From a candidate division TM6 bacterium GW2011_GWE2_36_25 (GTDB lineage: Bacteria; Babelota; Babeliae; Babelales; UBA12409), in contig LBRU01000009.1 in NCBI GenBank assembly GCA_000991575.1, positions 698 through 64,697 of the forward strand: a stretch of 64,000 bases of DNA, read 5' to 3'. Below the pieces are notes generated by a model that was not told the DNA's origin, did not search any database, and worked only from the letters and a program-made list of their open reading frames with translations. Positions 6,373 through 59,947 of this stretch are shown here, piece after piece; position 1 is the stretch's first letter; each line of letters begins with the position of its first letter. Made by a program: the position numbers and the translations under genes.

Positions 6373-6577
6373 GAACCTCGCAGCAAGCTACGAGGTATAA
6401 CGCTCGTATGGTTCGACTTGCTACATCCTGGGCAAAGTCGAAGGGTCACCACGAGCGCGCTCATCCTGATGCTTCGTCTGCGCTCAGCACTAAAGGCTGC
6501 GCTCATCCTGAGCTTGTCGAAGGATATGAGCGAATATAATGATTATGAAGCAAGCTTCGAGGAGTTTTACCTGTAAA
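6367..6577. repeat. composite hairpin-repeat element, family 1 (copy A, 211 bp, contains one 42-bp unit)
   Basis: It aligns end to end with the reverse complement of 20775-20943, with about 10 substitutions plus one extra 42-bp unit (TGCTTCGTCTGCGCTCAGCACTAAAGGCTGCGCTCATCCTGA). It contains the hairpin modules CGCTCGT...ACGAGCG and CGCTCAT-CCTGAG-CTTG-TCGAAGG-AT-ATGAGCG (6500-6532). Confidence 0.85.
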
Positions 6578-18045: not shown

Positions 18046-18480
18046 TTAGTTAACAAAGGGCAATTTATTCCAAATATGAGCAACACTAGATTTTACTTTA
18101 TCTCGCGTTTTCCAAAGTAATGGCATCGATGCCGTCACACATAATGCAGAAAGTGCATAAGGGTGTGTTTTGCAAAATTCAACAGTGCTTTTTGATGCAC
18201 GTAAAAGTGCATCTTGCGCATGGCTCATACCTTCTTTTGCTGACTTAACAACCGCACGCACCCCCTTTACTACTCTAATAGTGTGCCGCAACCTTCTTAC
18301 TTTTGTTGGTGCTTGAGCGATAAGGTGACCAACATTTTTCACGTGCTGCGGAACCTTTTTTATTGCCTCCTTCATCACAATCATTTTTTGGCGAACGGGA
18401 GCAATATTAATGGAATTACGAGCATCAATTGAAAAGAATAACAAACTAAAAAGCGAAAGAATAATTATCTTTCTGTCCAT
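18046..18480 (-). CDS. secreted paralog family A, member 1
   Basis: It has a signal peptide. The C-terminal half (AQDALLRASK...LLWKTRDKVKSSVAHIWNKLPFVN) is paralogous to 18546-18953. Confidence 0.5.
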   Translation of the reverse strand: MDRKIIILSLFSLLFFSIDARNSINIAPVRQKMIVMKEAIKKVPQHVKNVGHLIAQAPTKVRRLRHTIRVVKGVRAVVKSAKEGMSHAQDALLRASKSTVEFCKTHPYALSALCVTASMPLLWKTRDKVKSSVAHIWNKLPFVN

Positions 18481-18545
18481 AGAAGTTCCTCCATTATCAA
18501 TTCTTTTGAAGATAAAGGCCCCTCTACACGAGAGGCCTCATCATT

Positions 18546-18953
18546 TTATTTAACAAAAGGTAATTTCTTCCACATTTTTACAAATGCTGATTTTACCTTA
18601 TTTCTTGTCTTCCAAAGCACTGGTGTAGCTGCAGTAACAACGATGGCTGTTACGACACAACGAGGATGCTCGTAAAAAGCTCCGGCAACACGCCCGGAAG
18701 CAAACATTAATGCATCTTGAGCTTTTGCAAAACCATGTTTTGCTCCAGATATTACTTGTTTTGGAGCAGCATAAATTCCGCTCGCTATAGTGCGTGATGC
18801 ATTGGCAACATGATGAACGCGACTTTCGCAAAATTGAACCGTGCCATGAGCACCATTTTTGCAAGAAGAGATAACACCATCCAATGTAATGGCATTCAAT
18901 GATGAAAGTGATAATAAACTAACAACTGAGAGAACGATTGTTTTCTTATTCAT
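18546..18953 (-). CDS. secreted paralog family A, member 2
   Basis: I place the start at MNKKTIVLSV (ATG 18953), not at the track start 19007. The C-terminus ...AQDALMFASG...VLWKTRNKVKSAFVKMWKKLPFVK is paralogous to member 1. Confidence 0.5.
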   Translation of the reverse strand: MNKKTIVLSVVSLLSLSSLNAITLDGVISSCKNGAHGTVQFCESRVHHVANASRTIASGIYAAPKQVISGAKHGFAKAQDALMFASGRVAGAFYEHPRCVVTAIVVTAATPVLWKTRNKVKSAFVKMWKKLPFVK

Positions 18954-19016
18954 AATAATTCCTCCATAAAAAAACAAATTAATATTTTTAATCGCACATT
19001 GGAGCACAATAATTAT

Positions 19017-19310
19017 TCAAAAAACTAACTCCATTGGAATCAATTGGTTGCATTTCTGTTTGTACTTCAGCATCGACACAACGGGATTTTGCATAATCCA
19101 ACCCTTAAAATATGCTCGTCTATTTTTGAGTTTGATACATGCGGCCACCGTTAAAGCGCCACCACATGCAATATATCCTGCAAGTATTTTCAAACCATAA
19201 CGGTCTAAAAAACGCCCGCACTGAGCAAGAACCGGTTCACAAATACCTGCTTGTATTGAAGACAATGAAACTAAACTTAACAACGAAAGAATAAGTATTT
19301 TCTTATTCAT
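19017..19310 (-). CDS. secreted paralog family B, 46-bp-deletion variant (frameshifted C-terminus; possibly decaying)
   Basis: Start placed at MNKKILILSLL (ATG 19310). It is near-identical to 19345-19692 up to ...RRAYFKGW. After that a 46-nt deletion relative to the neighbour changes the frame. Confidence 0.45.
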   Translation of the reverse strand: MNKKILILSLLSLVSLSSIQAGICEPVLAQCGRFLDRYGLKILAGYIACGGALTVAACIKLKNRRAYFKGWIMQNPVVSMLKYKQKCNQLIPMELVF

Positions 19311-19344
19311 AATAATTCCTCCATAAAAAAACAAATTAATATTT

Positions 19345-19692
19345 TTAATCGCACAAAAAACTAATTCCATTGGAATCAATTGGTTGCGTTTCTGTTTGTA
19401 CTTCAGCATCGACACAACGGGATTTTGCATAATCAATCTCCATTTGCAACTTTTCCCTTCCATAGTTGTATCCTTCATTCCAACCCTTAAAATATGCTCG
19501 TCTATTTTTGAGTTTGATAACGGCGGCTAAAGCTAAAGCACCACCACACGCAACATATCCTGCAAGTATTTTCAAACCATTACGATCTAAAAAACGACCG
19601 CACTGAGCAAGAACCGGTTCACAAATACCCGCTTGCAATGAAGATAAAGACATTAAGCCTAAAAGAGATACTACCAAAGCCTTCTTATTCAT
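19345..19692 (-). CDS. secreted paralog family B, full-length member
   Basis: MNKKALVVSLLGLMSLSSLQAGICEPVLAQCGRFLDRNGLKILAGYVACGGALALAAVIKLKNRRAYFKGW... It has a signal peptide followed by a TM segment. Confidence 0.5.
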   Translation of the reverse strand: MNKKALVVSLLGLMSLSSLQAGICEPVLAQCGRFLDRNGLKILAGYVACGGALALAAVIKLKNRRAYFKGWNEGYNYGREKLQMEIDYAKSRCVDAEVQTETQPIDSNGISFLCD

Positions 19693-19710
19693 AATAATTC
19701 CTCCATGTTT

Positions 19711-20190
19711 TTAGCCAATATGACAATCCATAACGCCTGATTGCACCATGCAATACAGAGCCTCATTAACAAACTCATCGCTTTCCATAATTTGTTTCTC
19801 TAAATTTTTTAATTTTAGAGAAAAATCTTTCCATCTTTGTTCAAGAAAAAGATATTTATCGCTATACACATGCTTATTCAGATCACGCACACAAGCCAAT
19901 AATGGATAAAGCGAATGACTAAACTTTTTTTGTACAGCAAAAATAATGTGTGATGTTTTCTTTAGAGACAAAATTTTTTCATAGAATTTGTGCAAAGCTT
20001 CAAATTCTTTTCTCAATTGAACATGCTCGCGATGCAGTGATATGAAGGCACAAGAAAAGATAATTGCACATACGCTCGATGTACAAACTACTTCAGGAGC
20101 AAAACTTTCAAGAAAATCCCTAGATAATCCAGAATAATTAGATTGGAAAATAAATAAGAATAATACCATCAACCACTTTTTACTTATCAT
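19711..20190 (-). CDS. hypothetical protein with N-terminal hydrophobic segments
   Basis: 159-aa ORF in the same orientation as the surrounding cluster. No family recognised. Confidence 0.4.
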   Translation of the reverse strand: MISKKWLMVLFLFIFQSNYSGLSRDFLESFAPEVVCTSSVCAIIFSCAFISLHREHVQLRKEFEALHKFYEKILSLKKTSHIIFAVQKKFSHSLYPLLACVRDLNKHVYSDKYLFLEQRWKDFSLKLKNLEKQIMESDEFVNEALYCMVQSGVMDCHIG

Positions 20191-20230
20191 CTAAAAAACC
20201 TCTACTTAGGGAAATGGGTACAAACGCCAA

Positions 20231-20632
20231 TTATTTTTCAGAAACCGTCCCCTTTAACATATCAATTACATAGGTACCTGGTTTTTTTACCACTACTTTT
20301 ACTGAACGTTTATGTAAATATCCCAAACCAAAACCTGTTATTACACAAAGAACTTGCTGTTTCCATGGAGATAAAGCATCCCATTGTTTTTTATATTCGA
20401 TACTTTTTTCTTTGATATACGTACACCAATCACCCAAATCTTTTATTACTGATGAGGATGTAGGAAGAACTGCTCCTGAGGCAATTGAATTTATTTGTTC
20501 AGATACCTGAGATTCAGGCACAGACGCAAGAGATGCACCATCTTTATCTGACGAAGAACCATTTGGCACTTCAGCGTAAAGGGAAAGTGAAAAGAAAGAA
20601 CCTAAAAGAAGTGTCAATGAAATCTTATTCAT
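20231..20632 (-). CDS. secreted paralog family C, member 1
   Basis: It has a signal peptide and shares the motif W(D/N)xLSxxKQxxLCxxxGxxLG (QWDALSPWKQQVLCVITGFGLGYL) with 21242-21880. Confidence 0.5.
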   Translation of the reverse strand: MNKISLTLLLGSFFSLSLYAEVPNGSSSDKDGASLASVPESQVSEQINSIASGAVLPTSSSVIKDLGDWCTYIKEKSIEYKKQWDALSPWKQQVLCVITGFGLGYLHKRSVKVVVKKPGTYVIDMLKGTVSEK

Positions 20633-20774: not shown

Positions 20775-20943
20775 TTTATAGGTAAAATTCCTCGAAGCTT
20801 GCTTCGCAATCATTGTATTCGCTCATATCCTTCGACAGGCTCAGGATGAGCGCGCTCGTGGTGACCCTTCGACTTTGCTCAGGATGCAGCAAGTCGAACC
20901 ATACGAGCGTTATACCGCGTAGTTTGCTATGAGGTTCTTAATT
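20775..20943. repeat. composite hairpin-repeat element, family 1 (copy B, 169 bp, inverted relative to copy A, lacks the 42-bp unit)
   Basis: Its reverse complement aligns over its full length with 6367-6577, apart from the single 42-bp unit. Confidence 0.85.
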
Positions 20944-20960
20944 GGAAATAAAAACAAAGC

Positions 20961-21194
20961 ATTCACCATGAGCGAGCTTGAAACGGAGTGAAAAGTGAGT
21001 CGAATGGTTTTATCGAACGCTCTTCGTTAAACTTTCTTTGTAATTCAGAAAAATAGAAAACTTTATCGTGCGTTCGGTGAGACCCTTCGAGACACTCGCT
21101 ACGCTCGTTCCTCAGGGCGAACGCGTTAGGTAAAATGGTAAGAATGAAGAATGCGTTCGCCCTGAGCGAAGTCGAAGGGTTTTATCGAACGCGA
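20961..21194. repeat. cluster of three family-2 hairpin modules (fwd 20961-21020 degenerate, rev 21068-21125, fwd 21151-21194)
   Basis: The modules share GCGTTCG..CCTGAG..TCGAAGGG..CGAACGC with the arms at 28155-28300 and 32403-32763. For example, 21152-21192 reads TGCGTTCGCCCTGAGCGAAGTCGAAGGGTTTTATCGAACGC. Confidence 0.75.
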
Positions 21195-21241: not shown

Positions 21242-21880
21242 TTATTTTTCTGATTTACCAGCTTCTTGAGAAGAAGCATTATCATCAGGTATAAACTTTT
21301 CCGATACTTCAGTTTCTTCTTTTCTCTCAGTTGAAATTTCTTCAGGTTTATAAAAGCTGCTCTCTTTAAAATCATCCCAAATATCTCGTCCAACCGCATA
21401 TAACCCGGCTAAGGTTGCACCCGCAACAGCCATTTTTACCGGAAATCGCGCAACTTTACCTAAAACAATGCCTGATCCTAAACACAAGAGATTTTGCTTC
21501 GTAGATGATAAACCATTCCAATACTGTTGTGCTCTTTTTCCACAAACAAGACTTTTACCTAAAAATTCAACGCTTTCTTTCTTGAATGATCGATAAAAAT
21601 TACGACTTTTCTCATTCAAAGATGTACAAATTTGACAACGCTCCACACTCACCTCAGGTGAAAAGTCGGTTAAAGGAATAACCAAATCTTCTCCTAACCC
21701 CATAGGCACAATACCGGTGCTTGGTAAAAATTCAATTGGTTCAACCTTTTGAGCTTCAGAAATCACTTGAACCTGAGAACCTTTAAAAAATCCTGATAAG
21801 TATTCAAGCGGATTGAAAGCCTGAATTGAAGAGAGTGAAAATAAGGTTAAAAGAGAGAAAACTAAAATTTTCTTATTCAT
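21242..21880 (-). CDS. secreted paralog family C, member 2
   Basis: Signal peptide MNKKILVFSLLTLFSLSSIQA and the motif YWNGLSSTKQNLLCLGSGIVLGKV. The C-terminal tail is acidic. Confidence 0.5.
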   Translation of the reverse strand: MNKKILVFSLLTLFSLSSIQAFNPLEYLSGFFKGSQVQVISEAQKVEPIEFLPSTGIVPMGLGEDLVIPLTDFSPEVSVERCQICTSLNEKSRNFYRSFKKESVEFLGKSLVCGKRAQQYWNGLSSTKQNLLCLGSGIVLGKVARFPVKMAVAGATLAGLYAVGRDIWDDFKESSFYKPEEISTERKEETEVSEKFIPDDNASSQEAGKSEK

Positions 21881-22099
21881 AAAGAACCCCCATTAAAAAT
21901 TTATATTTAACGTTTTCATTCTACCAAAACTGCCAAAAATTGCAAGAAGAATTTAAAGTTTTACTTTTAGTTTTTAGAGGATTGTCGAGATATCAAAATA
22001 TTTTCTTTGAAAAATATTCAAACACCTTTTTTAAAAAGTTTTTAAAATTTTGATGCAATACATTACTCCTGTTACACTAATTCTGCGTAAAGGAGTTTT

Positions 22100-24289
22100 A
22101 TGGATTTCGCTGAATTTTTATCAACCGAATTAAATAACGAACAACAAAAAGCGGTTAGGCATGCAAAAGGACCTCTTCTGGTTATTGCGGGTGCAGGCTC
22201 AGGCAAAACGCGTGTTATAACCAGTCGCATTATCAACCTTATACTCACCGAAAAAGTTACTCCAACTTCAATTATTGCATTAACGTTTACTAATAAAGCT
22301 GCCCAAGAAATGCGTGAACGCGTACAAAAAAGCATTGGCATACCGGCCACTCCTTTTAAAAATAACAGTTTTTTTATTGGAACTTTCCATTCTTATTGCT
22401 TGCGACTTCTTAAAAAAAATGCACACATTTTAAAACTCGATCATTTTTCCATTCTCGATGGCGATGATCAAATAAGCATGTTAAAGAAATTAGTTGATGC
22501 GCATTGCCCTAAAAAAATTCAACCACGCCAAGCTCTTTATCAAATATCCACCCTCAAAAACAATCTCCTCAACCAGCAAGAAACACTCATTGATCCTACC
22601 GTACAAGAACTTTATAATTTATATGAACACGAAAAAAGATTAAGCAACTGTTTAGATTTTGACGATTTACTCATTAAAGCACTTGAACTTTTCAGCTCAA
22701 AAAATTTTAAAACAGCACACCAAAATCATATTCGTCATGTTCTTGTTGATGAATATCAAGATACGAATGTTGTGCAAAATGAATTGCTCAAAGAAATGTG
22801 CCTCGATAAAAAAAAATTCATCATCGATTCACTCTGTGCCGTAGGAGATGAAGATCAATCTATTTACTCATGGCGTGGTGCAACGATTGATAATATGCTC
22901 AATTTCAAAAAAGATTTCCCCGGAACAACACTCATAAAAATTGAACAGAACTATCGCTCAGTAAAACCAATTCTTGAAGCGGCAAATCATATCATTAAAC
23001 ATAATCAAAATCGCCATCCGAAAAAATTGTGGTCAACACGTGAAGGCTCAAACAATATTTTGGAGCTTACGTGCATGTCCGGATTTCAAGAGGCGGATAT
23101 GATTGCGGCAAGTGCTTCATTGTTACAACAAAAAAATGAATTACAAAATTGTGCAGTCCTCTACCGCACCCATTTTCAATCACGTCTTATTGAAGAAGCA
23201 TTAATAAAAAAATCAATTCCGTACAAAATTATCGGCGGCATTCAATTTTATGAACGCAAAGAAATTAAAGACCTGCTCGCCTATTTACGTTTATTAATTA
23301 ATCCTTTTGATAGAATTGCGCTTTTTAGAATACTCAACTGCCCTCCTCGCAGATTGGGTGACAAATTCGCAGAACAATTTCAAAAAGCATGGGAACAAGA
23401 ACCATTTCAAACATTTACTGATATTGCACAAAAACTTTTAGAAGATTTAAAACCTCAACAAAAAAGCAACCTTGAAGATTTTATTAATATTTTCTCATCG
23501 ATAGATCTCTCTTTTTCCCCTGCGCACGCAATCAACCACATGAGCAAAAAATGTGGTTACCTCACTTATCTTAAGGAAGAGTACGAACCCCAAGAAGCAG
23601 AGGCACGCATTCAAAACATTCAAGAATTAATTAATGCTGCTCGCTATTTTGAAGAACAGGGATTAGAAACCACTGAACAATTTCTTCAAGAAATTGCCCT
23701 TTTACAAGATAAAATTAACCAAGAAAATAACACGAACGAACGCCTAACCCTCATGACTATTCACGCAGCAAAAGGACTCGAATTTGACACAATCATTCTT
23801 GCAGGGCTCGAAGAAGGACTCTTGCCCAGTTCAAAATCCCTCGAAAATGAGTCAAATATCGAAGAAGAGCGACGATTATTATATGTAGGTATCACAAGGG
23901 CACGCAAAAAATTAATTCTCTTACAAGCAGGATATCGACACACTTTCGGTTCTATGACTTATCAACAACCCTCTCGCTTCCTCAAAGAACTACCCAATAC
24001 GGGCATTCAGAGGGAAGATTGCTCATATTGGAAAGAATGTCAGACAATTCAATTTTTACGCAGTTTTTTCGGCATAATAGCACCAGAACAGTCAATCCAA
24101 ACCTTTGGCCCCGCAAAAAAATTTAAGGCAGCCTCTAAAAAAGATCTGCACTCGTATCCTTCGACAAGCTCAGGACGAGCGCAGCCTTTAGTGCTGAGCG
24201 AAGCCGAAGCATCAGGACGAGCGCAGCCTTTAGTGCTGAGCGAAGCCGAAGCATCAGGACGAGCGCAGCAGGACGAGCGCAGCCTTTAG
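22100..24289 (+). CDS. uvrD: UvrD/PcrA-family ATP-dependent DNA helicase, helicase core; reading frame terminated inside a repeat array
   Basis: Motif I GAGSGKT, motif II VDEYQDTN, YRS, and motifs V/VI (TIHAAKGLEF...YVGITRARKKL). The final ~45 aa are translated repeat (SGRAQPLVLSEAEA). The TAG stop at 24287-24289 is created by a 14-nt partial repeat unit. Confidence 0.9.
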   Translation: MDFAEFLSTELNNEQQKAVRHAKGPLLVIAGAGSGKTRVITSRIINLILTEKVTPTSIIALTFTNKAAQEMRERVQKSIGIPATPFKNNSFFIGTFHSYCLRLLKKNAHILKLDHFSILDGDDQISMLKKLVDAHCPKKIQPRQALYQISTLKNNLLNQQETLIDPTVQELYNLYEHEKRLSNCLDFDDLLIKALELFSSKNFKTAHQNHIRHVLVDEYQDTNVVQNELLKEMCLDKKKFIIDSLCAVGDEDQSIYSWRGATIDNMLNFKKDFPGTTLIKIEQNYRSVKPILEAANHIIKHNQNRHPKKLWSTREGSNNILELTCMSGFQEADMIAASASLLQQKNELQNCAVLYRTHFQSRLIEEALIKKSIPYKIIGGIQFYERKEIKDLLAYLRLLINPFDRIALFRILNCPPRRLGDKFAEQFQKAWEQEPFQTFTDIAQKLLEDLKPQQKSNLEDFINIFSSIDLSFSPAHAINHMSKKCGYLTYLKEEYEPQEAEARIQNIQELINAARYFEEQGLETTEQFLQEIALLQDKINQENNTNERLTLMTIHAAKGLEFDTIILAGLEEGLLPSSKSLENESNIEEERRLLYVGITRARKKLILLQAGYRHTFGSMTYQQPSRFLKELPNTGIQREDCSYWKECQTIQFLRSFFGIIAPEQSIQTFGPAKKFKAASKKDLHSYPSTSSGRAQPLVLSEAEASGRAQPLVLSEAEASGRAQQDERSL

Positions 24290-24644
24290 TGCTGAGCGAA
24301 GCCGAAGCATCAGGACGAGCGCAGCCTTTAGTGCTGAGCGAAGCCGAAGCATCAGAACGAGCGCAGCCTTTAGTGCTGAGCGAAGCCGAAGCATCAGGAC
24401 GAGCGCAGTCTTTAGTGTTGAGCGAAATCGAAGTATCCGCGCAACCCTCAAGAGAAAGCCATTTTTCAATTCAACATTCCTCTAACAAAAATTTCAATCA
24501 CCAAAAAATAAATTTTTCTGCGAAACACAATACTCCAATAAATAACGATCTAAAAAAGAATAGCAATTACCCCCATAATTCAATTAACACAAAATTAAAA
24601 ACGCACAACGACGCGCTCGTCCTGAGCTTGTCGAAGGATACGAG
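24151..24644. repeat. repeat-bounded insertion inside uvrD/pcrA: 32-bp perfect inverted repeats (24151-24182 / 24613-24644) enclosing a 42-bp tandem array and an AT-rich core
   Basis: Left arm CTCGTATCCTTCGACAAGCTCAGGACGAGCGC is the exact reverse complement of right arm GCGCTCGTCCTGAGCTTGTCGAAGGATACGAG. Both are family-1 hairpin modules. Confidence 0.85.
24171..24436 (+). repeat. 42-bp tandem repeat array (6 units plus one 14-nt partial unit at 24255-24268)
   Basis: The unit is CAGGACGAGCGCAGCCTTTAGTGCTGAGCGAAGCCGAAGCAT. Units start at 24171, 24213, 24269, 24311, 24353 and 24395 (the last is degenerate). Confidence 0.9.
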
Positions 24645-27878: not shown

Positions 27879-28154
27879 ACTCGATCTTCTTCTACATTAG
27901 CAAAATTCATTTTTGAAAATAAATAGTTTTAAAAAAATAATCTTATTTATTCGACTCAGTGATTGTTATTCAAAATATAATTATGAAAGAACTTTTAAAA
28001 ATTTCGGGTTTAATAAATACGTTATCATAGACCTCTTCCGAAACAATAAAGCACTCAAACGTTTTTAACGTTGCCCCTATTAATGCTTATATTGATAATC
28101 AAGAAGTTATTCACCATAAATAAATTTGATAATAAAGGTTGAATTTGACTTCAC

Positions 28155-28300
28155 GCATTCGCCATGAGGAACGAGCATAGCGAGTGTCTCGAAGGGTTTT
28201 GCCGAACGCACTTATTAAGATAAATCCATAATGTTACTCAGTGTACGTGTTCGATGAGACCCTTCGAATCGCCATTATAATGGCTCCCTCAGGGCGAACG
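28155..28300. mobile_element. MITE-like internal-deletion derivative of the GIY-YIG element (two inverted family-2 arms, 29-bp core)
   Basis: The arms are 28155-28211 and 28241-28300. The core TTATT/AAGATAAATCCATAATGTTACTCAG matches the first 5 nt (32463-32467) and the last ~30 nt (32674-32702) of the interior of the 32403-32763 element. Confidence 0.7.
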
Positions 28301-28377
28301 GAAGAAAAGCACCTTAATATAAAACAATCGAATATTAACCTGACTTAAATTTCATTGTCTCGGAAGAGATCTCATCT

Positions 28378-29989: not shown

Positions 29990-30379
29990 TTATCTTTGAT
30001 GCACAAATTCATGCGCATCCCGATTGTACTTTGTGCTATAGAATTTTTCACAAAAGTGACATTTAAAGGGTTTTAATTTTTGATGAGTCCTTTCATGCCG
30101 TTCACACTTTGATCTAATGTCAAAAATTTTACCACATACGGAACATGCAAAGGGCACTTTCTCACATTTTTGCGTACACAACTTCGGCCCTTCACCCACC
30201 TTGTCAGTATCAATCATTTTTCGTCTTTTTTCAGGTTTTTCTTCATGTGCTGCACGAGAAAACATTACTAAACTTTCGGCTGCACGAACATCATGTGATG
30301 TAAGCCTTGTATCTCGTTTCTCCATAGCATTAACTGAAAATACGGCGTAAAATAACATTAAAATAATATTTTTTTTCAT
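29990..30379 (-). CDS. secreted protein with two classical C2H2 zinc fingers
   Basis: It has a signal peptide. CSVCGKIFDIRSKCERHERTH and CHFCEKFYSTKYNRDAHEFVH both fit C-x2-C-x12-H-x3-H exactly. They are joined by a TGEKP-like linker (HQKLKPFKC). Confidence 0.7.
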   Translation of the reverse strand: MKKNIILMLFYAVFSVNAMEKRDTRLTSHDVRAAESLVMFSRAAHEEKPEKRRKMIDTDKVGEGPKLCTQKCEKVPFACSVCGKIFDIRSKCERHERTHQKLKPFKCHFCEKFYSTKYNRDAHEFVHQR

Positions 30380-30443: not shown

Positions 30444-31190
30444 TCATTTAAATCTTCCTCTTAAAATGGCAACTTGAATTGCAAATCGAACGCTCTTACC
30501 TATTTTCAACTTCAAGGCTTCAAGGCTTCCTTTTATATTAAGATTGAGTTTTTTCTCATGAGAAACTAACACTCGCAACTCTTCAAAAATACGCATGTCT
30601 TTTATAACCACATTAAATTGAGTCCGAGGATTAGAACTTACAATAGTCCCCCGAGCAAAAAGCCAAAGAGGAGGATGTTTAATACATTCAAACGCTTCGA
30701 CTATGCTGTTTCTCAGGTGTTCTACAATGACCGGATCATCGGTAGTTTTCAAAATGTGATCTATTTGTTTTACAATCAATCGCACAAGCATGTGATCTTT
30801 TTCGCAAACCACACGCTCCAGATGATTAATACCTATATCTGAAATGATACGAGCCCCTTTATCAAGAAGAAATTTAACTAGGTGATAATTTTTTTGACTA
30901 ATAGCGATCGCTAAAGGAGTTTCACCTCTTCCATCTATCGCATTAACATCAGCCCCTTTTTGCACAAGCACCCGCGCCATATCATACTGCTTATTCTCAA
31001 TAGCACATATCAATACAGTTATTCCATTTTGCTGAGACTCTAACAAAGATCTATCTTGTTCATACTGAGCGATTACGCTCTCAATATTTCCATTTTTAAT
31101 AGCTTCAAAAAATACTATTCTTGATTCCATTGCAGAACAACAGAAAGCAAAAAATAAAACAGATACAAATAGCAGTTTGCACAATTTCAT
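30444..31190 (-). CDS. secreted ankyrin-repeat protein
   Basis: Signal peptide plus ANK repeats (GITVLICAIENKQYDMARVLVQKGADVNAIDGRGETPLAIAISQKNYHLVKFLLDKGA). Confidence 0.8.
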   Translation of the reverse strand: MKLCKLLFVSVLFFAFCCSAMESRIVFFEAIKNGNIESVIAQYEQDRSLLESQQNGITVLICAIENKQYDMARVLVQKGADVNAIDGRGETPLAIAISQKNYHLVKFLLDKGARIISDIGINHLERVVCEKDHMLVRLIVKQIDHILKTTDDPVIVEHLRNSIVEAFECIKHPPLWLFARGTIVSSNPRTQFNVVIKDMRIFEELRVLVSHEKKLNLNIKGSLEALKLKIGKSVRFAIQVAILRGRFK

Positions 31191-31279: not shown

Positions 31280-32287
<1,008 letters not shown>

Positions 32288-32399
32288 TCAATTAAGATTT
32301 TTTATTTAGTATAACATGCGCATAAGAAAATGAAGCGCTTGACTGCTTTTAAACCTTTCACATATCAATGTTCATATTGATAATAAACAGTGTATTTGA

Positions 32400-32766
32400 T
32401 TTCTCGCGTTCGCCCTGAGGGAGCCATTGTAATGGCGATTCGAAGGGTTTTATCGAACGCACTTATTTCATAAAACCAGTCCACCCAAACATAATAAGTC
32501 GTTCTTTTTTTTGACGGGTCCATTTTTTTATTTTTCGTTCTGCTGCTAAGACTTCTAATCTTGAAGTAAATTTTTCTGCATAAACAAGTTTAAGTGGCCT
32601 GCGATTAAAAGTATAACATTTATATAAACCCATATTGTGCTCAGAAATGCGTATCATTGCATTTTAAAATATAAAGATAAAATTCCATAACATTACTTCA
32701 GGTGCGCGTTCGATAAAACCCTTCGAATCGCCATTACAATGGCTCCCTCAGGGCGAACGCGAGAAA
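32400..32766. mobile_element. GIY-YIG nuclease remnant framed by perfect ~60-bp inverted repeats (family-2 hairpin arms)
   Basis: 32403-32460 is the exact reverse complement of 32706-32763 (58/58 by manual comparison; 61 nt including the flanking TTT/AAA). The only cargo is the ORF 32463-32657. Confidence 0.75.
32463..32693 (-). pseudogene. decayed stand-alone GIY-YIG (URI/COG2827-type) endonuclease
   Basis: The ORF reads ..ISEHNMG..RRPLKLVYAEKFTSRLEVLAAERKIKKWTRQKKERLI, which matches the C-terminal two-thirds of small GIY-YIG proteins. The same frame upstream reads MLWNFIFIF-stop-NA-MIRIS. This gives an in-frame TAA (32664-32666) and loss of the GIY/YIG segment. Confidence 0.6.
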
Positions 32767-33056
32767 GAAAATTCACTATAAACTACTATAAATCCATCTA
32801 AAGTATATATTATTTTGTTAAGTTTCAGAATTAAAAATTTTTATTGCCTCGAACACATTGGATAAATGCGAGAGAAGGTTGCGTCAAATAAACTGGACAA
32901 CCTATTCAACAAAGTTTTGGCAACGCGTGAAATCTTCTCGTCTCCATCCATTGCTAAAAGCACGATGGTATTAGACGACGGAAAATAAAAAAAAGAATTA
33001 CCAATTTGCAAGCACGCCACATTCCGTGGTAAAAAATAAAAAAATGGGAATCGCTC

Positions 33057-34364: not shown

Positions 34365-35727
34365 TTGCATTCTTATTTTATTTGGTGCCTTGGGTGATTT
34401 GGCAAAGAAAAAAATTATTCCGGCGCTCTATTCACTAGTACACAAAGAGCAGCTCGACAATTTACACATCATCGGCACTGATTTAGCAAATATCTCAAAA
34501 CATAACATGCTCAAAGCTGCACAAGAACTTTTGCCTGAAATCGATGAAAAAACATGGCATGCATTTGAACAAATTACACATTATCAGCAACTCGATATTA
34601 ATAATTTAGAAGACTTTAAAAAACTAAAAGAATTTATTGAGGTTATAGAAAAGAAACACAATCTTTCTGGAAATCGATTAATATATTGTGCGACACCATC
34701 AGATCTTTTTAGCACGATTACCAAACAGAGTCATGCTGCCCGCATTATTACCTGCACGTCAATTGAAGAAAGACCATGGCAACGCATTATTTATGAAAAA
34801 CCTTTCGGGCGTGATTACACATCGGCAAAAAAACTTAATAAAGAAATTCACAATTGCCTCAATGAGACACAAGTTTATCGCGTTGATCATTATCTCGCAA
34901 AAGAGCTTATTGCCAATATCACGTTACTGAGATTCACCAATCGAATGCTTGAACCGCAATGGAATCATCATGACATTGCATCGGTAGAAATTATTTTAGA
35001 TGAAGAAATCGGTGTAGCACATCGTGGAAATTATTATAATCAAACAGGCGCTCTTCGCGATGTGGTACAAAATCACATATTTGAACTTCTTGCGTTAGTA
35101 AGCATGGAACCACCGACGACTATTACCGGATCAGACTTACAAGAAAAACGTGCTGAGGTTCTCAAAAATCTTTCTTTCGACAGCGGCATTCTCGGACAAT
35201 ATGAAGGATTTCGTACAATCGATGGTGTAAAAAAAGATTCTATGACAGAAACGTTTGCAGCTCTAAAACTCTTTGTTAATAACGAACGCTGGAAAGGTGT
35301 TCCTTTTTACATTCGTACGGGCAAATGTTTACAAAAAACTAAAAAATTAATTCATCTCAATTTTAAACCAGAACATTGTCGTTTAATCGCCGGCTGTCCA
35401 TTACCCGCAAACCGTTTAACCATTGCTATTGAACCTCACGCAGGATTTTCGCTTGAACTTAATGCAAAAAAACCTGGTTACACAACTACCGTTGTTCCTA
35501 TCACGATGGAATTTTGTCATGAATGTTTATTCGGCGTTTATACACCTCAGGCATATGAAGTAATTTTATTAGAAGTCATTGATGGCGACCAAGGAATCTC
35601 GGTCCGCTTTGATGAAATTGAATACAGCTGGAAAATTATTGATGAAATTTATCGCAAACAATTACCTCTCTATTTTTATAAATGCGGAAGCAATGGACCA
35701 GATGAAGAATTTGAGGGAAAAATATGA
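34357..35727 (+). CDS. zwf: glucose-6-phosphate 1-dehydrogenase
   Basis: N-terminal LFGALGDLAKKKIIPALY, the active-site motif RVDHYLAKE, and EKPFG. It overlaps pgi by 8 nt. Confidence 0.9.
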   Translation: MRDCILILFGALGDLAKKKIIPALYSLVHKEQLDNLHIIGTDLANISKHNMLKAAQELLPEIDEKTWHAFEQITHYQQLDINNLEDFKKLKEFIEVIEKKHNLSGNRLIYCATPSDLFSTITKQSHAARIITCTSIEERPWQRIIYEKPFGRDYTSAKKLNKEIHNCLNETQVYRVDHYLAKELIANITLLRFTNRMLEPQWNHHDIASVEIILDEEIGVAHRGNYYNQTGALRDVVQNHIFELLALVSMEPPTTITGSDLQEKRAEVLKNLSFDSGILGQYEGFRTIDGVKKDSMTETFAALKLFVNNERWKGVPFYIRTGKCLQKTKKLIHLNFKPEHCRLIAGCPLPANRLTIAIEPHAGFSLELNAKKPGYTTTVVPITMEFCHECLFGVYTPQAYEVILLEVIDGDQGISVRFDEIEYSWKIIDEIYRKQLPLYFYKCGSNGPDEEFEGKI

Positions 35728-36716
35728 AGATCGGCATCATTGGTTTAGGAAAAATGGGAAGCGCAATTGCCACACGACTTGCACAAGGAGATCATGATGT
35801 TATTGGTTATGATCCACATGTAAAAATAACCATTAACCGGGTAAAACAAGTTGACGCACTCCAAGCAATCACTCAACAAGAGATTATTTGGCTTATGGTT
35901 CCTGCAGAAGCCATTGATAAAATCTTGCAAGAACTTACACCCCATTTAATTGAAAAAAACATATTGAAAGGCTGCGCTCGTCCTGATGCTTCGTCTACGC
36001 TCAGCACTAAAGGCTGCGCTCGTCCTGATGCTTCGTCTACGCTCAGCACTAAAGGCTGCGCTCGTCCTGAGCTTGTAATTATTGATGGCGGAAACAGTTT
36101 TTATAAAGATTCTAAAAGACGTGCAAGCACATTGGCAAAATCAAACATTTTTTATCTTGATTGTGGAACCTCTGGTGGCATTCATGGATTAAAAGATGGT
36201 TTTTGTTTAATGATCGGTGGCAATGAAGATGCATTTAAAAAAGCAGAACCCATTTTCGAAACAATTGCAGCAAAAGATGGTTATGCCCTAGTTGGTCCTT
36301 CTGGCGCAGGTCATTATGTCAAAATGGTGCATAATGGAATTGAATACGCGTTACTCCAAAGTTATGCAGAGGGCTTTTCAATTTTACACGCAAGCCGACA
36401 ATTTCCCCATTTAAATTTAGAACAAATAAGTGGCTTATGGATGCATGGTTCAATTATACGTTCCTTTTTACTTGAATTAACTCATGAAATTTTTAAAGAA
36501 AAAATAGATTTTAACAAAATTAAAGGAATAATTGGAGAAAGTGGCACTGGTAGATGGGCACAAGAAGAAGCAAATTTATTAGGCCTTAATACACCGGCGC
36601 TTGAAAGTGCTTTGAAAACGAGAAAAGAATCACAGATAAAGGGCGACTCGTTTACCATGAAACTCATCGCCCTTTTACGAAATAAATTTGGTGGCCATCC
36701 TGTTGAAAAAGAATAA
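35724..36716 (+). CDS. gnd: 6-phosphogluconate dehydrogenase (short, YqeC/Gnd-like form) carrying an in-frame repeat insertion
   Basis: MKIGIIGLGKMGSAIA Rossmann start, IIDGGNS, GTSGG and GAGHYVKMVHNGIEYA. A 36-aa insert (KGCARPDASSTLST x2 plus KGCARPEL) sits directly before IIDGGNS. Confidence 0.85.
   Translation: MKIGIIGLGKMGSAIATRLAQGDHDVIGYDPHVKITINRVKQVDALQAITQQEIIWLMVPAEAIDKILQELTPHLIEKNILKGCARPDASSTLSTKGCARPDASSTLSTKGCARPELVIIDGGNSFYKDSKRRASTLAKSNIFYLDCGTSGGIHGLKDGFCLMIGGNEDAFKKAEPIFETIAAKDGYALVGPSGAGHYVKMVHNGIEYALLQSYAEGFSILHASRQFPHLNLEQISGLWMHGSIIRSFLLELTHEIFKEKIDFNKIKGIIGESGTGRWAQEEANLLGLNTPALESALKTRKESQIKGDSFTMKLIALLRNKFGGHPVEKE
35967..36076 (-). repeat. 42-bp unit array (about 2.6 units) inside gnd, opposite orientation to the uvrD array
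   Basis: ATGCTTCGTCTACGCTCAGCACTAAAGGCTGCGCTCGTCCTG occurs at 35986-36027 and 36028-36069, with partial units on both sides. It is the reverse complement of the 24171-24436 unit with 3-4 substitutions. Confidence 0.85.
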
Positions 36717-47688: not shown

Positions 47689-47763
47689 TGGTAGGCGCGA
47701 GCGGAATTGAACCGCTGACCCTTGCTACGTCAAAGCAATGCTCTACCCCTGAGCTACGCGCCT
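47689..47763 (-). tRNA. tRNA-Val (anticodon GAC), CCA encoded
   Basis: Manual cloverleaf: AGGCGCG-TA-GCTC-AGGGGTA-GAGC-A-TTGCT-TTGACGT-AGCAA-GGGTC-AGCGG-TTCAATT-CCGCT-CGCGCCT-A-CCA. Confidence 0.85.
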
Positions 47764-59133: not shown

Positions 59134-59210
59134 TGGCAGGCCAGGAGGGATTCGAACCCCCAACCGTCAGATTTGGAGTCTGTCGCTCTACCATTTCGAG
59201 CTACTGGCCT
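59134..59210 (-). tRNA. tRNA-Trp (anticodon CCA), CCA encoded
   Basis: AGGCCAG-TA-GCTC-GAAATGGTA-GAGC-G-ACAGA-CTCCAAA-TCTGA-...-GGGGG-TTCGAAT-CCCTC-CTGGCCT-G-CCA. It sits in the conserved position upstream of secE. Confidence 0.85.
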
Positions 59211-59282
59211 CGAACATCTGCGACATCCACGTCGCCCATTATTTCATCTCTTTTTTTGAGACCACTCTCAAAACTCAGCTTC

Positions 59283-59358
<76 letters not shown>

Positions 59359-59528
59359 CTCTGATACTACTAACAACCTTACATCTTATCTATAAGGTTA
59401 AATTAAAAAAAGAGAAAATACAAATTATATCGTGCTCAGTCAACTTTTCTAACGCTCATTTTTCAACAAAAATTGAATTGTTGAAAAATGCCCTTAAAAA
59501 TAAATATCAAAGTACCATTAACATAAAA

Positions 59529-59604
59529 TGGAGCTGGCGGTCGGACTTGAACCAACGACCTGCTGATTACAAATCAGCTGCTCTACCAACTGAGCTACGC
59601 CAGC
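59529..59604 (-). tRNA. tRNA-Thr (anticodon TGT), CCA encoded
   Basis: GCTGGCG-TA-GCTC-AGTTGGTA-GAGC-A-GCTGA-TTTGTAA-TCAGC-AGGTC-GTTGG-TTCAAGT-CCGAC-CGCCAGC-T-CCA. Confidence 0.85.
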
Positions 59605-59774
59605 AGTTTTACGTTTAAAAGTAAACTGTTTCAATCCATTATATATTAATGTAGTGATTTTTTTAAGATTTTCAACTTTTTTATGTTCTGCATCCAAAAA
59701 AGATATTTTTCGCGCAAACAGCGAACCATTCACATAAAATTTATGTTGTTAAAACCAAGTTAAATAGACAAATT

Positions 59775-59851
59775 TGGAGCGGGAAACGGGATTCGAACCC
59801 GCGACCTACAGCTTGGAAGGCTGTCGCTCTAGCCAACTGAGCTATTCCCGC
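59775..59851 (-). tRNA. tRNA-Gly (anticodon TCC), CCA encoded
   Basis: GCGGGAA-TA-GCTC-AGTTGGCTA-GAGC-G-ACAGC-CTTCCAA-GCTGT-AGGTC-GCGGG-TTCGAAT-CCCGT-TTCCCGC-T-CCA. Confidence 0.85.
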
Positions 59852-59862
59852 ATAACGAAAAC

Positions 59863-59947
59863 TGGTGGCGAGGGTAGGATTCGAACCTACGAAGGCTGAG
59901 CCAACGGATTTACAGTCCGTCCCCTTTGACCGCTCGGGAACCTCGCC
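59863..59947 (-). tRNA. tRNA-Tyr (anticodon GTA), long variable arm, CCA encoded
   Basis: GGCGAGG-TT-CCCGAGCGGTCAAAGGGG-ACGGA-CTGTAAA-TCCGT-TGGCTCAGCCTTC-GTAGG-TTCGAAT-CCTAC-CCTCGCC-A-CCA. Confidence 0.85.

Follow-up and report, generated by a model that had tools for sequence, protein, structure and literature searches.

Is a broken nuclease gene framed by two perfect inverted hairpins the relic of a transposon, or does it belong to another kind of element? The question is raised by positions 32400-32766 of a 64,000-nucleotide stretch of contig LBRU01000009.1 (hereafter the window) from the candidate division TM6 bacterium GW2011_GWE2_36_25, where the remains of a small GIY-YIG nuclease gene lie between trpS and pgi. 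An earlier note on this DNA had proposed a mobile-element family of undescribed architecture, with the hairpin arms as its ends and the GIY-YIG protein as its mobilising enzyme. Comparison with related sequences points to another answer: the locus is probably a cassette in which a single-domain GIY-YIG nuclease of about 87 aa is flanked by hairpins of a type recognised in single-stranded DNA (ssDNA), similar to the Ssn/NTS systems.

SsnA of Neisseria meningitidis is a single-domain GIY-YIG protein of 94 aa (CDD cd10448) which binds the NTS hairpin repeat and cuts ssDNA just upstream of it, while double-stranded DNA and RNA are left uncut (Chenal et al., Nat Commun 2025, PMC11893778). In 42% of SsnA homologues, SRM repeats are present on both sides (PMC11893778). 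As cassettes of a small GIY-YIG nuclease and hairpins were thus published in 2025, the claim of an undescribed architecture falls. The variant with a CGTTCG-tagged hairpin appears not to have been described before: a literature search on GIY-YIG proteins together with REP (repetitive extragenic palindromic) sequences, MITEs (miniature inverted-repeat transposable elements), Dependentiae, COG2827/YhbQ/UPF0213 and the module sequence itself returned nothing describing this hairpin.

The two arms are reverse complements over 61 of 61 nt (32400-32460 versus 32706-32766), as the earlier note had counted, and at 96% complementarity they extend to 72 nt (32389-32460 / 32706-32777). Their 55-nt core GCGTTCG...CGAACGC (GCGTTCGCCCTGAGGGAGCCATTGTAATGGCGATTCGAAGGGTTTTATCGAACGC) occurs exactly twice in the window, once in each arm (Table 1), with 0 mismatches and a chance expectation of 0. 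That each arm is a hairpin module in its own right was confirmed by folding single arms both as RNA (-23.3 and -18.4 kcal/mol, z -3.6 and -2.8) and as ssDNA (-11.5 and -10.8 kcal/mol, z about -2.7). The module upstream of the gene consists of the tag CGTTCG, the stem CCC/GGG with the loop TGAGG-[GAGCCATTGTAATGGCGA]-TTCGAA, the stretch TTTTAT and a final CGAACGC, which closes an outer 7-bp stem; it is found in the same place and orientation in three other loci (L002, L011 and L020; L numbers denote the loci compared and P numbers their proteins). The downstream position is occupied by a module with a different loop in the copy beside an M24 peptidase gene, so that arm-to-arm identity is specific to the window copy. 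Between the upstream module and the ATG, the 17-nt leader is identical in L002 and L010-L013, and a diverged form, ACGTACACTGAGTAACATT, is kept in the derivative at 28 kb described below. The arms have no match in Rfam, either at gathering thresholds across the whole window or at E<=10 across 32250-32900. A hammerhead-like reading of CUGAG..CGAAG was dropped in view of this null result and of the misfit of its core nucleotides.

The gene between the arms lies on the minus strand, and its 64-aa open reading frame (ORF) matches PF01541 with an E value of 5e-9 over profile positions 26-76 of 78, in agreement with the proposal that it represents the C-terminal two-thirds of a small GIY-YIG nuclease. 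Its stop codon stands 2 nt from the arm that it had been said to abut. An intact allele encodes a protein of 87 aa (P0001) with a PF01541 match over residues 3-74 (E 5e-19), and a tblastn search of the window with this protein recovers two stretches, residues 26-87 (95% identity) and residues 1-15. The gene is decayed, as the earlier note had said: compared with the intact allele of sister strains, a 38-nt out-of-frame deletion takes out ESYYIGHTENLEK, including the YIG motif. The peptide MLWNFIFIF, which had been taken for a remnant of the first β-strand, is a frame error; the true N-terminus, MEFYLYILKCND, is still encoded at 32688-32653, in a different frame.

The breakage is confined to particular strains. 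The window is almost identical to the genome of candidate division TM6 (Dependentiae) bacterium GW2011_GWF2_36_131, with 0 mismatches over 7,996 nt of LBRK01000009.1 and an 8-nt gap in the GIY-YIG gene as the sole difference; in that assembly the window sequence is split over two contigs (LBRK01000009.1 and LBRK01000015.1, on which loci L026 and L010 lie), so that the window stems from a near-identical strain whose assembly is more contiguous. Contigs with the trpS-pgi site from several samples, which encode identical TrpS proteins, all carry the cassette and the same perfect arms. Four of them (L011-L013 and L017) hold the kind of intact 87-aa gene that the earlier note had suggested looking for, while L010 carries a 30-nt deletion with a TAA arising at the junction and the window the frame-shifting 38-nt deletion. 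Between two intact paralogues, at the trpS-pgi and M24 loci, the ratio of nonsynonymous to synonymous substitution (dN/dS) is 0.08 at a dS of 0.23, and the protein has therefore been under purifying selection until recently. Judged from these alignments, the window copy is a recently broken, strain-specific null allele.

Among strains without point differences over 8 kb, the changes are mostly deletions. Their right-hand end points are common to independent alleles and fall directly after a GAAAA run in both cases: at cassette position 146/147, before ACGCATTTCTGAG, in L010, the window (junction 32651-32653) and L134, and at position 222-224, before TTACTTCAAG, in L024, L025 and L026. Such common end points could reflect a fragile or cleaved site, or stepwise one-sided erosion.

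The pairing of gene and hairpin extends far beyond this lineage. When one genome per species was scanned for homologues, 541 relatives turned up, in Sphingomonas, Dehalococcoidia, Legionella, Babeliales, Geobacteraceae, Ignavibacteriales and other groups, and module statistics were obtained from the best 80 of their loci. A module pattern in which the tag CGYTNR is followed by 3 nt of stem, by YGAS..YCGAV and by the complement of the stem matched 211 times in these 80 loci versus 2 times in shuffles. On the gene strand, a module lies within 150 nt upstream at 44 of the 80 loci, an opposite-strand module lies just downstream at 42, and both are present at 33; overall, hairpin repeats on both sides of the gene were found across phyla at 33-41 of the 80 loci. 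One 50%-identical homologue, P0009 (L022/L023; gene at 239-559 of L023, on a contig that by eye does not look AT-rich), is flanked in both orientations by the hairpin TCAGAGT-GAGCGAAGCCGAA-CTCTGA, in which the GAGCGAAGYCGAA loop is kept with another stem and without the CGTTCG tag.

The stem of the module varies in sequence but keeps its complementarity. With a pattern that imposes no stem requirement, 118 of 123 matches have perfectly complementary stems versus 31% after shuffling, and the stem types include CCC/GGG, TCC/GGA, TGC/GCA and TGG/CCA. In an alignment of 60 sequences, 59-60 form the inner three pairs, with 14-27 double changes, and the covariation score of 0.415 compares with 0.217 in shuffles (0/500 as high) and with at most 0.175 when the partners are slid. 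Long variants of the module, the window's among them, have an extra stem-loop between TGAG and TCGAA. The arms within one copy tend toward the same loop variant and the variants differ from copy to copy, which suggests that the two arms of each copy are homogenised with one another: both arms are identical in the window (GCCATTGTAATGGC) and in L134 (GCCATATTTGGC), and they are closely similar in L020 (GCCAGTTTTGGC upstream, GCTATTTTTGGC downstream). In L020/L021, where a 74%-identical gene stands in another genomic context with the same arms, both arms share an altered loop stem.

The earlier note had also foreseen that the same arms would be found beside GIY-YIG genes at other loci and in other genomes, which is the case in L002, L024, L020/L021 and L134. 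Within the lineage, at least four or five loci hold the cassette with modules on both sides and with null alleles that vary by strain; apart from the trpS-pgi site, the cassette adjoins the M24 peptidase gene (L001-L009, L025, L026), rtcB (L024, L126) and a cmk-like gene (L134). Alignment of these copies delimits a cassette-bearing unit with sharp ends at unrelated sites, 575 bp long in L002 (2855-3429), which has AGAYCTCTTCCGAAACAAT at each end as 19-nt terminal inverted repeats (18/19 matching) and encodes the GIY-YIG nuclease as its only ORF. Direct repeats of 3-4 bp are flush with the ends of the unit at four sites (AAT, TAGT, ATG and AAT). In L002, the unit is inserted within an older, decayed copy of the same GIY-YIG gene, and removal in silico of the unit and one AAT leaves a sequence colinear with an intact gene, so that the host copy serves as a reconstructed empty site. 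In other genomes, the paralogue comparison did not resolve the boundaries of the unit.

A gene-less derivative, which the earlier note had already proposed, is present in the window in the form of a 344-bp version of this unit. It retains the terminal inverted repeats (28029-28047 and 28354-28372) and the modules at 28156-28196 (+) and 28260-28300 (-), while only ATGGAT..AATAAGT is left of the gene, and a direct repeat, CAT, stands at 28026-28028 and 28373-28375. In L134 (7111-8643), a cassette unit is interrupted by an insertion sequence (IS) encoding a 286-aa DDE transposase (PF13612, E 2e-57), with its own termini GCGAGTTCGATAATT and a 9-bp duplication, GTTAAATAC, on the flanks; this transposase is part of a separate IS with other termini which was inserted into the cassette unit.

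The boundaries of the unit bear directly on the reading in which the 367-bp stretch is an autonomous IS-like transposon, with the arms of about 58 bp as its ends, the GIY-YIG protein as its transposase and the gene-less pairs as its derivatives. This reading would account for a gene between inverted repeats, for the multi-copy state and for the gene-deleted derivative, and the cassette unit with terminal repeats and target duplications at four sites encodes no other protein. The NTS-ssnA-NTS layout was likewise compared to an insertion sequence by the authors of the Ssn work (PMC11893778). However, the trpS-pgi copy is without the 19-bp termini to which the insertion signatures belong, and its homology to other copies continues for about 105 nt past one arm (BLAST, 80.7% over 181 columns against L002) and about 65 nt past the other, where the terminal repeat is missing or decayed. 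It follows that the hairpin arms lie inside repeated units and are not the ends that the earlier note had taken them to be; no direct repeats are flush with them in the window. Many modules are moreover single or arrayed, far from any gene. GIY-YIG enzymes hydrolyse DNA, and strand transfer by them is not known; nothing in the comparison shows a mobilising role for this one. A transposon bounded by the arms is thus unlikely.

An explanation at the RNA level must be given about the same low weight. Here, the hairpins would be structures in the 5' and 3' untranslated regions which act in mRNA stability, termination or regulation, and their spread would be secondary. In position, the arms correspond to the 5' leader and the very 3' end of the gene, they fold strongly as RNA, and G-U pairs are tolerated (pair 9-29: GU 24, GC 22, AU 11). 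By contrast, there is no T-run or terminator-like site and no match to an Rfam family, and modules also occur in coding regions and at a distance from the GIY-YIG gene. As the two arms lie on opposite strands, the mRNA would carry the tagged strand of only one of them.

The hairpins also recall the REP, REPIN and BIME repeats, short GC-rich extragenic hairpins that are associated with REP-associated tyrosine (Y1) transposases (RAYTs) and that flank the gene of the enzyme (PMC2817692, PMC3116915, PMC3733652). If the modules were spread by such a Y1 transposase, the GIY-YIG gene would be no more than a frequent neighbour. A gene for a 161-aa IS200-like Y1 transposase (PF01797, E 4e-44) does lie 1.2 kb from the M24-locus cassette (1303-1788 in L002, also in L001), and the modules form BIME-like inverted pairs and arrays. 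However, this Y1 gene, possibly that of a RAYT which has its own REPs, has hairpins of other families on its flanks (GGCTTTTAAGCC plus the CCCCATGG / CCCCATGGTTTTTAAACCTGGGG types); because its hairpins differ from the modules, a RAYT was rejected as their source. The module is also without GTAG, the usual tag of REPs associated with RAYTs (PMC3733652), and the fixed arrangement with one module (+) 13-70 nt upstream and another (-) just downstream in 33 of the 80 loci across phyla is not expected under chance co-location. Spread by a Y1 transposase is therefore very improbable. Least probable of all is an ordinary housekeeping UPF0213/YazA-like gene that stands amid abundant intergenic repeats without any functional link: it is suggested by the best structure and named matches (1ywl 4e-15, 1zg2 2e-14, YazA 48%) but conflicts with multiple copies at unrelated sites, null alleles that vary by strain, a gene-hairpin arrangement kept across phyla, and the lack of modules at B. 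subtilis yazA and at a GIY-YIG gene from a Legionella plasmid that groups with UPF0213, both of them true UPF0213 loci.

How close the cassette is to Ssn itself can be judged from the tree of the proteins (neighbour-joining with bootstrap), which has three groups. The SRM-flanked group (bootstrap 100%) contains Azospirillum and Shinella, plus Planktothrix, which is not SRM-flanked; the UPF0213 group (88%) contains YazA, EF2693, BH0048 and plasmid genes of Legionella, Xanthomonas and Variovorax; and the module-flanked group contains P0001, P0005, P0009, Sphingomonas and others. UPF0213 proteins are the top named and structure relatives of the nuclease (40-48% identity, E 1e-14 to 1e-22) and group apart from the module-flanked clade despite these scores. 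The NCBIfam collection has no model that discriminates Ssn from UPF0213, and a PDB search with an SRM-flanked Ssn returned no Ssn structure.

Several observations weigh against the assignment to an Ssn/NTS-like cassette. The SRM pattern, HGTCWYN(0-2)YYVSBRHN(0-5)WNVSBRGN(0-2)RNCYNB, matches nothing in the window (0 hits) or close to the gene in L002, L020, L021 and L023, and it is absent beside the gene in 78 of the 80 homologous loci, only 2 of which have any match. The pattern does detect the repeats of the two reference loci that satisfy the operational definition of the Ssn paper, one on the Azospirillum lipoferum plasmid AZO_p3 (L111, where CGTCATCCCCGCGAAGGCGGGGATCCAG occurs four times around the gene) and one on the Shinella plasmid pShin-01 (L114). 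P0001 is closer to YazA (48%, 73 bits) than to the SRM-flanked Ssn of Azospirillum (34%, 47 bits), the bootstrap value of the module-flanked clade is only 65%, and the nuclease role of this clade is predicted by analogy. The stem positions are compatible with G-T or G-U pairs, which would also suit a role in RNA. As for movement, the empty trpS-pgi site that the earlier note had suggested looking for was not found, as 10 of 10 related contigs carry the cassette, all from near-identical strains; an empty-site pattern scan of metagenome contigs revealed no empty M24 site; and no transposase with terminal repeats matching those of the 575-bp unit was found, a terminal-repeat scan of metagenomes having returned three true copies and chance matches only.

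By analogy with Ssn/NTS, the nuclease of the cassette would recognise the tagged hairpin in ssDNA and cut beside it. The putative site is the module with its 5' tag CGTTCG, a stem that is free in sequence but always complementary, and the conserved TGAG..TCGAA loop; under this analogy, the arms would therefore be the cognate sites of the enzyme and not transposon ends. Repeated cutting, followed by recombinational repair between the inverted arms, could keep the same loop variant within a copy, and the two processes together may help to seed dispersed gene-less modules. The 575-bp unit of Dependentiae, which was inserted at no fewer than four sites, would presumably have been moved in trans by some transposase. 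A bolder version of this model, in which the CGTTCG hairpin and its GIY-YIG clade make up a phylum-spanning sister of Ssn/NTS, not described before, whose nuclease drives the spread and homogenisation of the hairpins and of its own cassette, is possible but doubtful. If it were true, the nuclease would be the mobilising enzyme that is so far missing for REP-like repeats of a very widespread class, and possibly the enzyme behind the Dependentiae terminal-repeat unit with its 3-bp target duplications.

Few of the unexplained features of bacterial genomes are as common as small GC-rich hairpin repeats. A review from 2013 on tagged REPs recognised one large class without a dedicated enzyme (PMC3733652), and the Ssn work of 2025 linked that class to a tiny GIY-YIG ssDNA nuclease (PMC11893778). 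The present comparison suggests that the Ssn principle is broader and includes a second protein clade paired with another type of hairpin, a pair that is conserved in groups as far apart as Dependentiae, Sphingomonas, Legionella and Dehalococcoidia. The Dependentiae lineage offers natural material on how such cassettes move and die: strains that are otherwise identical hold intact or broken alleles, one cassette-bearing unit shows clear signatures of insertion, and the arms are identical within a copy. If cleavage specificity tracks hairpin type, the clade could add new specificities to the ssDNA-nuclease toolbox that has been proposed for Ssn.

Further members of the module family lie elsewhere in the window (Table 1). 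The earlier note had the same arms recurring near 21 and 28 kb; related modules are indeed present at 20960-21193 and 28156-28300 but are 79-92% similar rather than identical. The short form of the module also flanks GIY-YIG homologues of other phyla, and some of the modules that stand away from any GIY-YIG gene lie inside coding regions. Module parts make up a GC-rich 42-nt repeat array of 2.6 copies (35967-36074) inside the ORF for 6-phosphogluconate dehydrogenase (35724-36716), where it splits the NAD_binding_2 match in two and thus looks like an in-frame intragenic repeat insertion. In a UvrD-like helicase ORF (22100-24289), the 3' tail consists of a bigger array of the same 42-nt unit (24128-24450). 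Two short modules in this region (24151-24182 / 24613-24644) form an inverted pair of 32 nt with 100% complementarity, 430 nt apart, in an orientation opposite to that on the flanks of the GIY-YIG gene.

Table 1. Hairpin modules, nuclease gene remnant and related units in the 64-kb window.
Feature	Position	Strand	Remarks
Short canonical module, CGCTCATCC-TGAGCTTGTCGAA-GGA	6500-6524	+	
Further short module	20828-20852	-	
Three-module cluster without gene	20960-21193		Modules 20960-21007 (+), 21083-21123 (-), 21154-21179 (+)
Further short module	24157-24181	-	
Further short module	24614-24638	+	
Gene-deleted derivative of the 575-bp unit, 344 bp	28029-28372	-	244 nt of the gene lost; both termini and modules kept
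Flank past downstream arm	32340-32405	-	Homologous to the interior of the terminal-repeat-bounded unit (BLAST, L002 unit against window)
Downstream hairpin module	32406-32460	+ (opposite to gene)	Exact inverted copy of the upstream module
GIY-YIG pseudogene	32463-32688	-	Codons 1-12 MEFYLYILKCND, 38-nt frame-shifting deletion, 64-aa ORF 32463-32657
Leader between upstream module and ATG, 17 nt, GCACCTGAAGTAATGTT	32689-32705	-	Kept in other copies
Upstream hairpin module	32706-32760	- (gene strand)	Exact match, hairpin fold; module pattern match 32719-32759 (-)
Flank past upstream arm	32761-32868	-	Homologous to L002 3528-3632, adjoining the older interrupted copy; still repeated-unit sequence

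Other features of the window concern its surroundings. Beside trpS, there are genes for a 129-aa secreted-looking protein with C2H2 zinc-finger matches below the Pfam cut-offs (29990-30379) and for a 248-aa ankyrin-repeat protein (30444-31190), eukaryote-like genes which fit an intracellular lifestyle. Small paralogues with conserved starts and upstream regions are arranged in tandem on the minus strand at 18046-20632 and 21242-21894 (repeat families D2, D3, D5, D7 and D11); the two genes compared with Pfam gave no match. Five tRNA genes are clustered on the minus strand at 59137-59947 and a sixth is located at 47692-47763.

Set against known systems, the locus combines features of several. 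With homing endonucleases such as I-TevI and Seg, it shares the GIY-YIG catalytic domain and a selfish-like pattern of multiple copies and repeated decay, but it is chromosomal and intergenic, not part of an intron or phage, and has no DNA-binding domain because its 87 aa are the catalytic domain alone; TIGR01453 scores 15 bits versus a cut-off of 56. Like MITEs and small insertion sequences, the 575-bp unit has terminal inverted repeats, short direct repeats, a nested insertion and an internally deleted copy, whereas it encodes no recognisable transposase and the trpS-pgi copy is without its termini. REP/RAYT systems resemble it in their GC-rich extragenic hairpins in inverted pairs and arrays, in an enzyme gene flanked by repeats, and probably in recognition as ssDNA; they differ in their enzyme, which is of the HUH/Y1 type and not a GIY-YIG hydrolase, and in their tag, which is GTAG or CGTC instead of CGTTCG. 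The UPF0213 proteins B. subtilis YazA, E. faecalis EF2693 (PDB 1ywl) and B. halodurans BH0048 (PDB 1zg2) are similar in size and fold family. Unlike the present gene, B. subtilis yazA (between trmNF and rsmI) and the Legionella plasmid gene have no flanking modules, and multiple copies, strain-varying null alleles and modules on both sides do not fit the profile of a housekeeping gene.

The closest parallel is Ssn. Both are single-domain GIY-YIG proteins of about 90 aa encoded between hairpin repeats, of which further copies are scattered over the genome; in both, a conserved 5' tag precedes the hairpin (CGTCAT plus stem in Ssn, CGTTCG plus stem here); and both have an IS-like layout and are enriched in intracellular or symbiotic bacteria. 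They differ in that the hairpin does not match the SRM pattern, that the protein falls outside the SRM-flanked clade and is about 34% identical to it, that the cutting of ssDNA is established for SsnA and only predicted here, and that one version of the cassette lies inside a unit with terminal repeats and target duplications, which was not found described in PMC11893778. Given its different hairpin type and its probable position in a sister clade, as far as sequence comparison can place it, the locus is probably an Ssn/NTS-like cassette but a distinct variant of that system.

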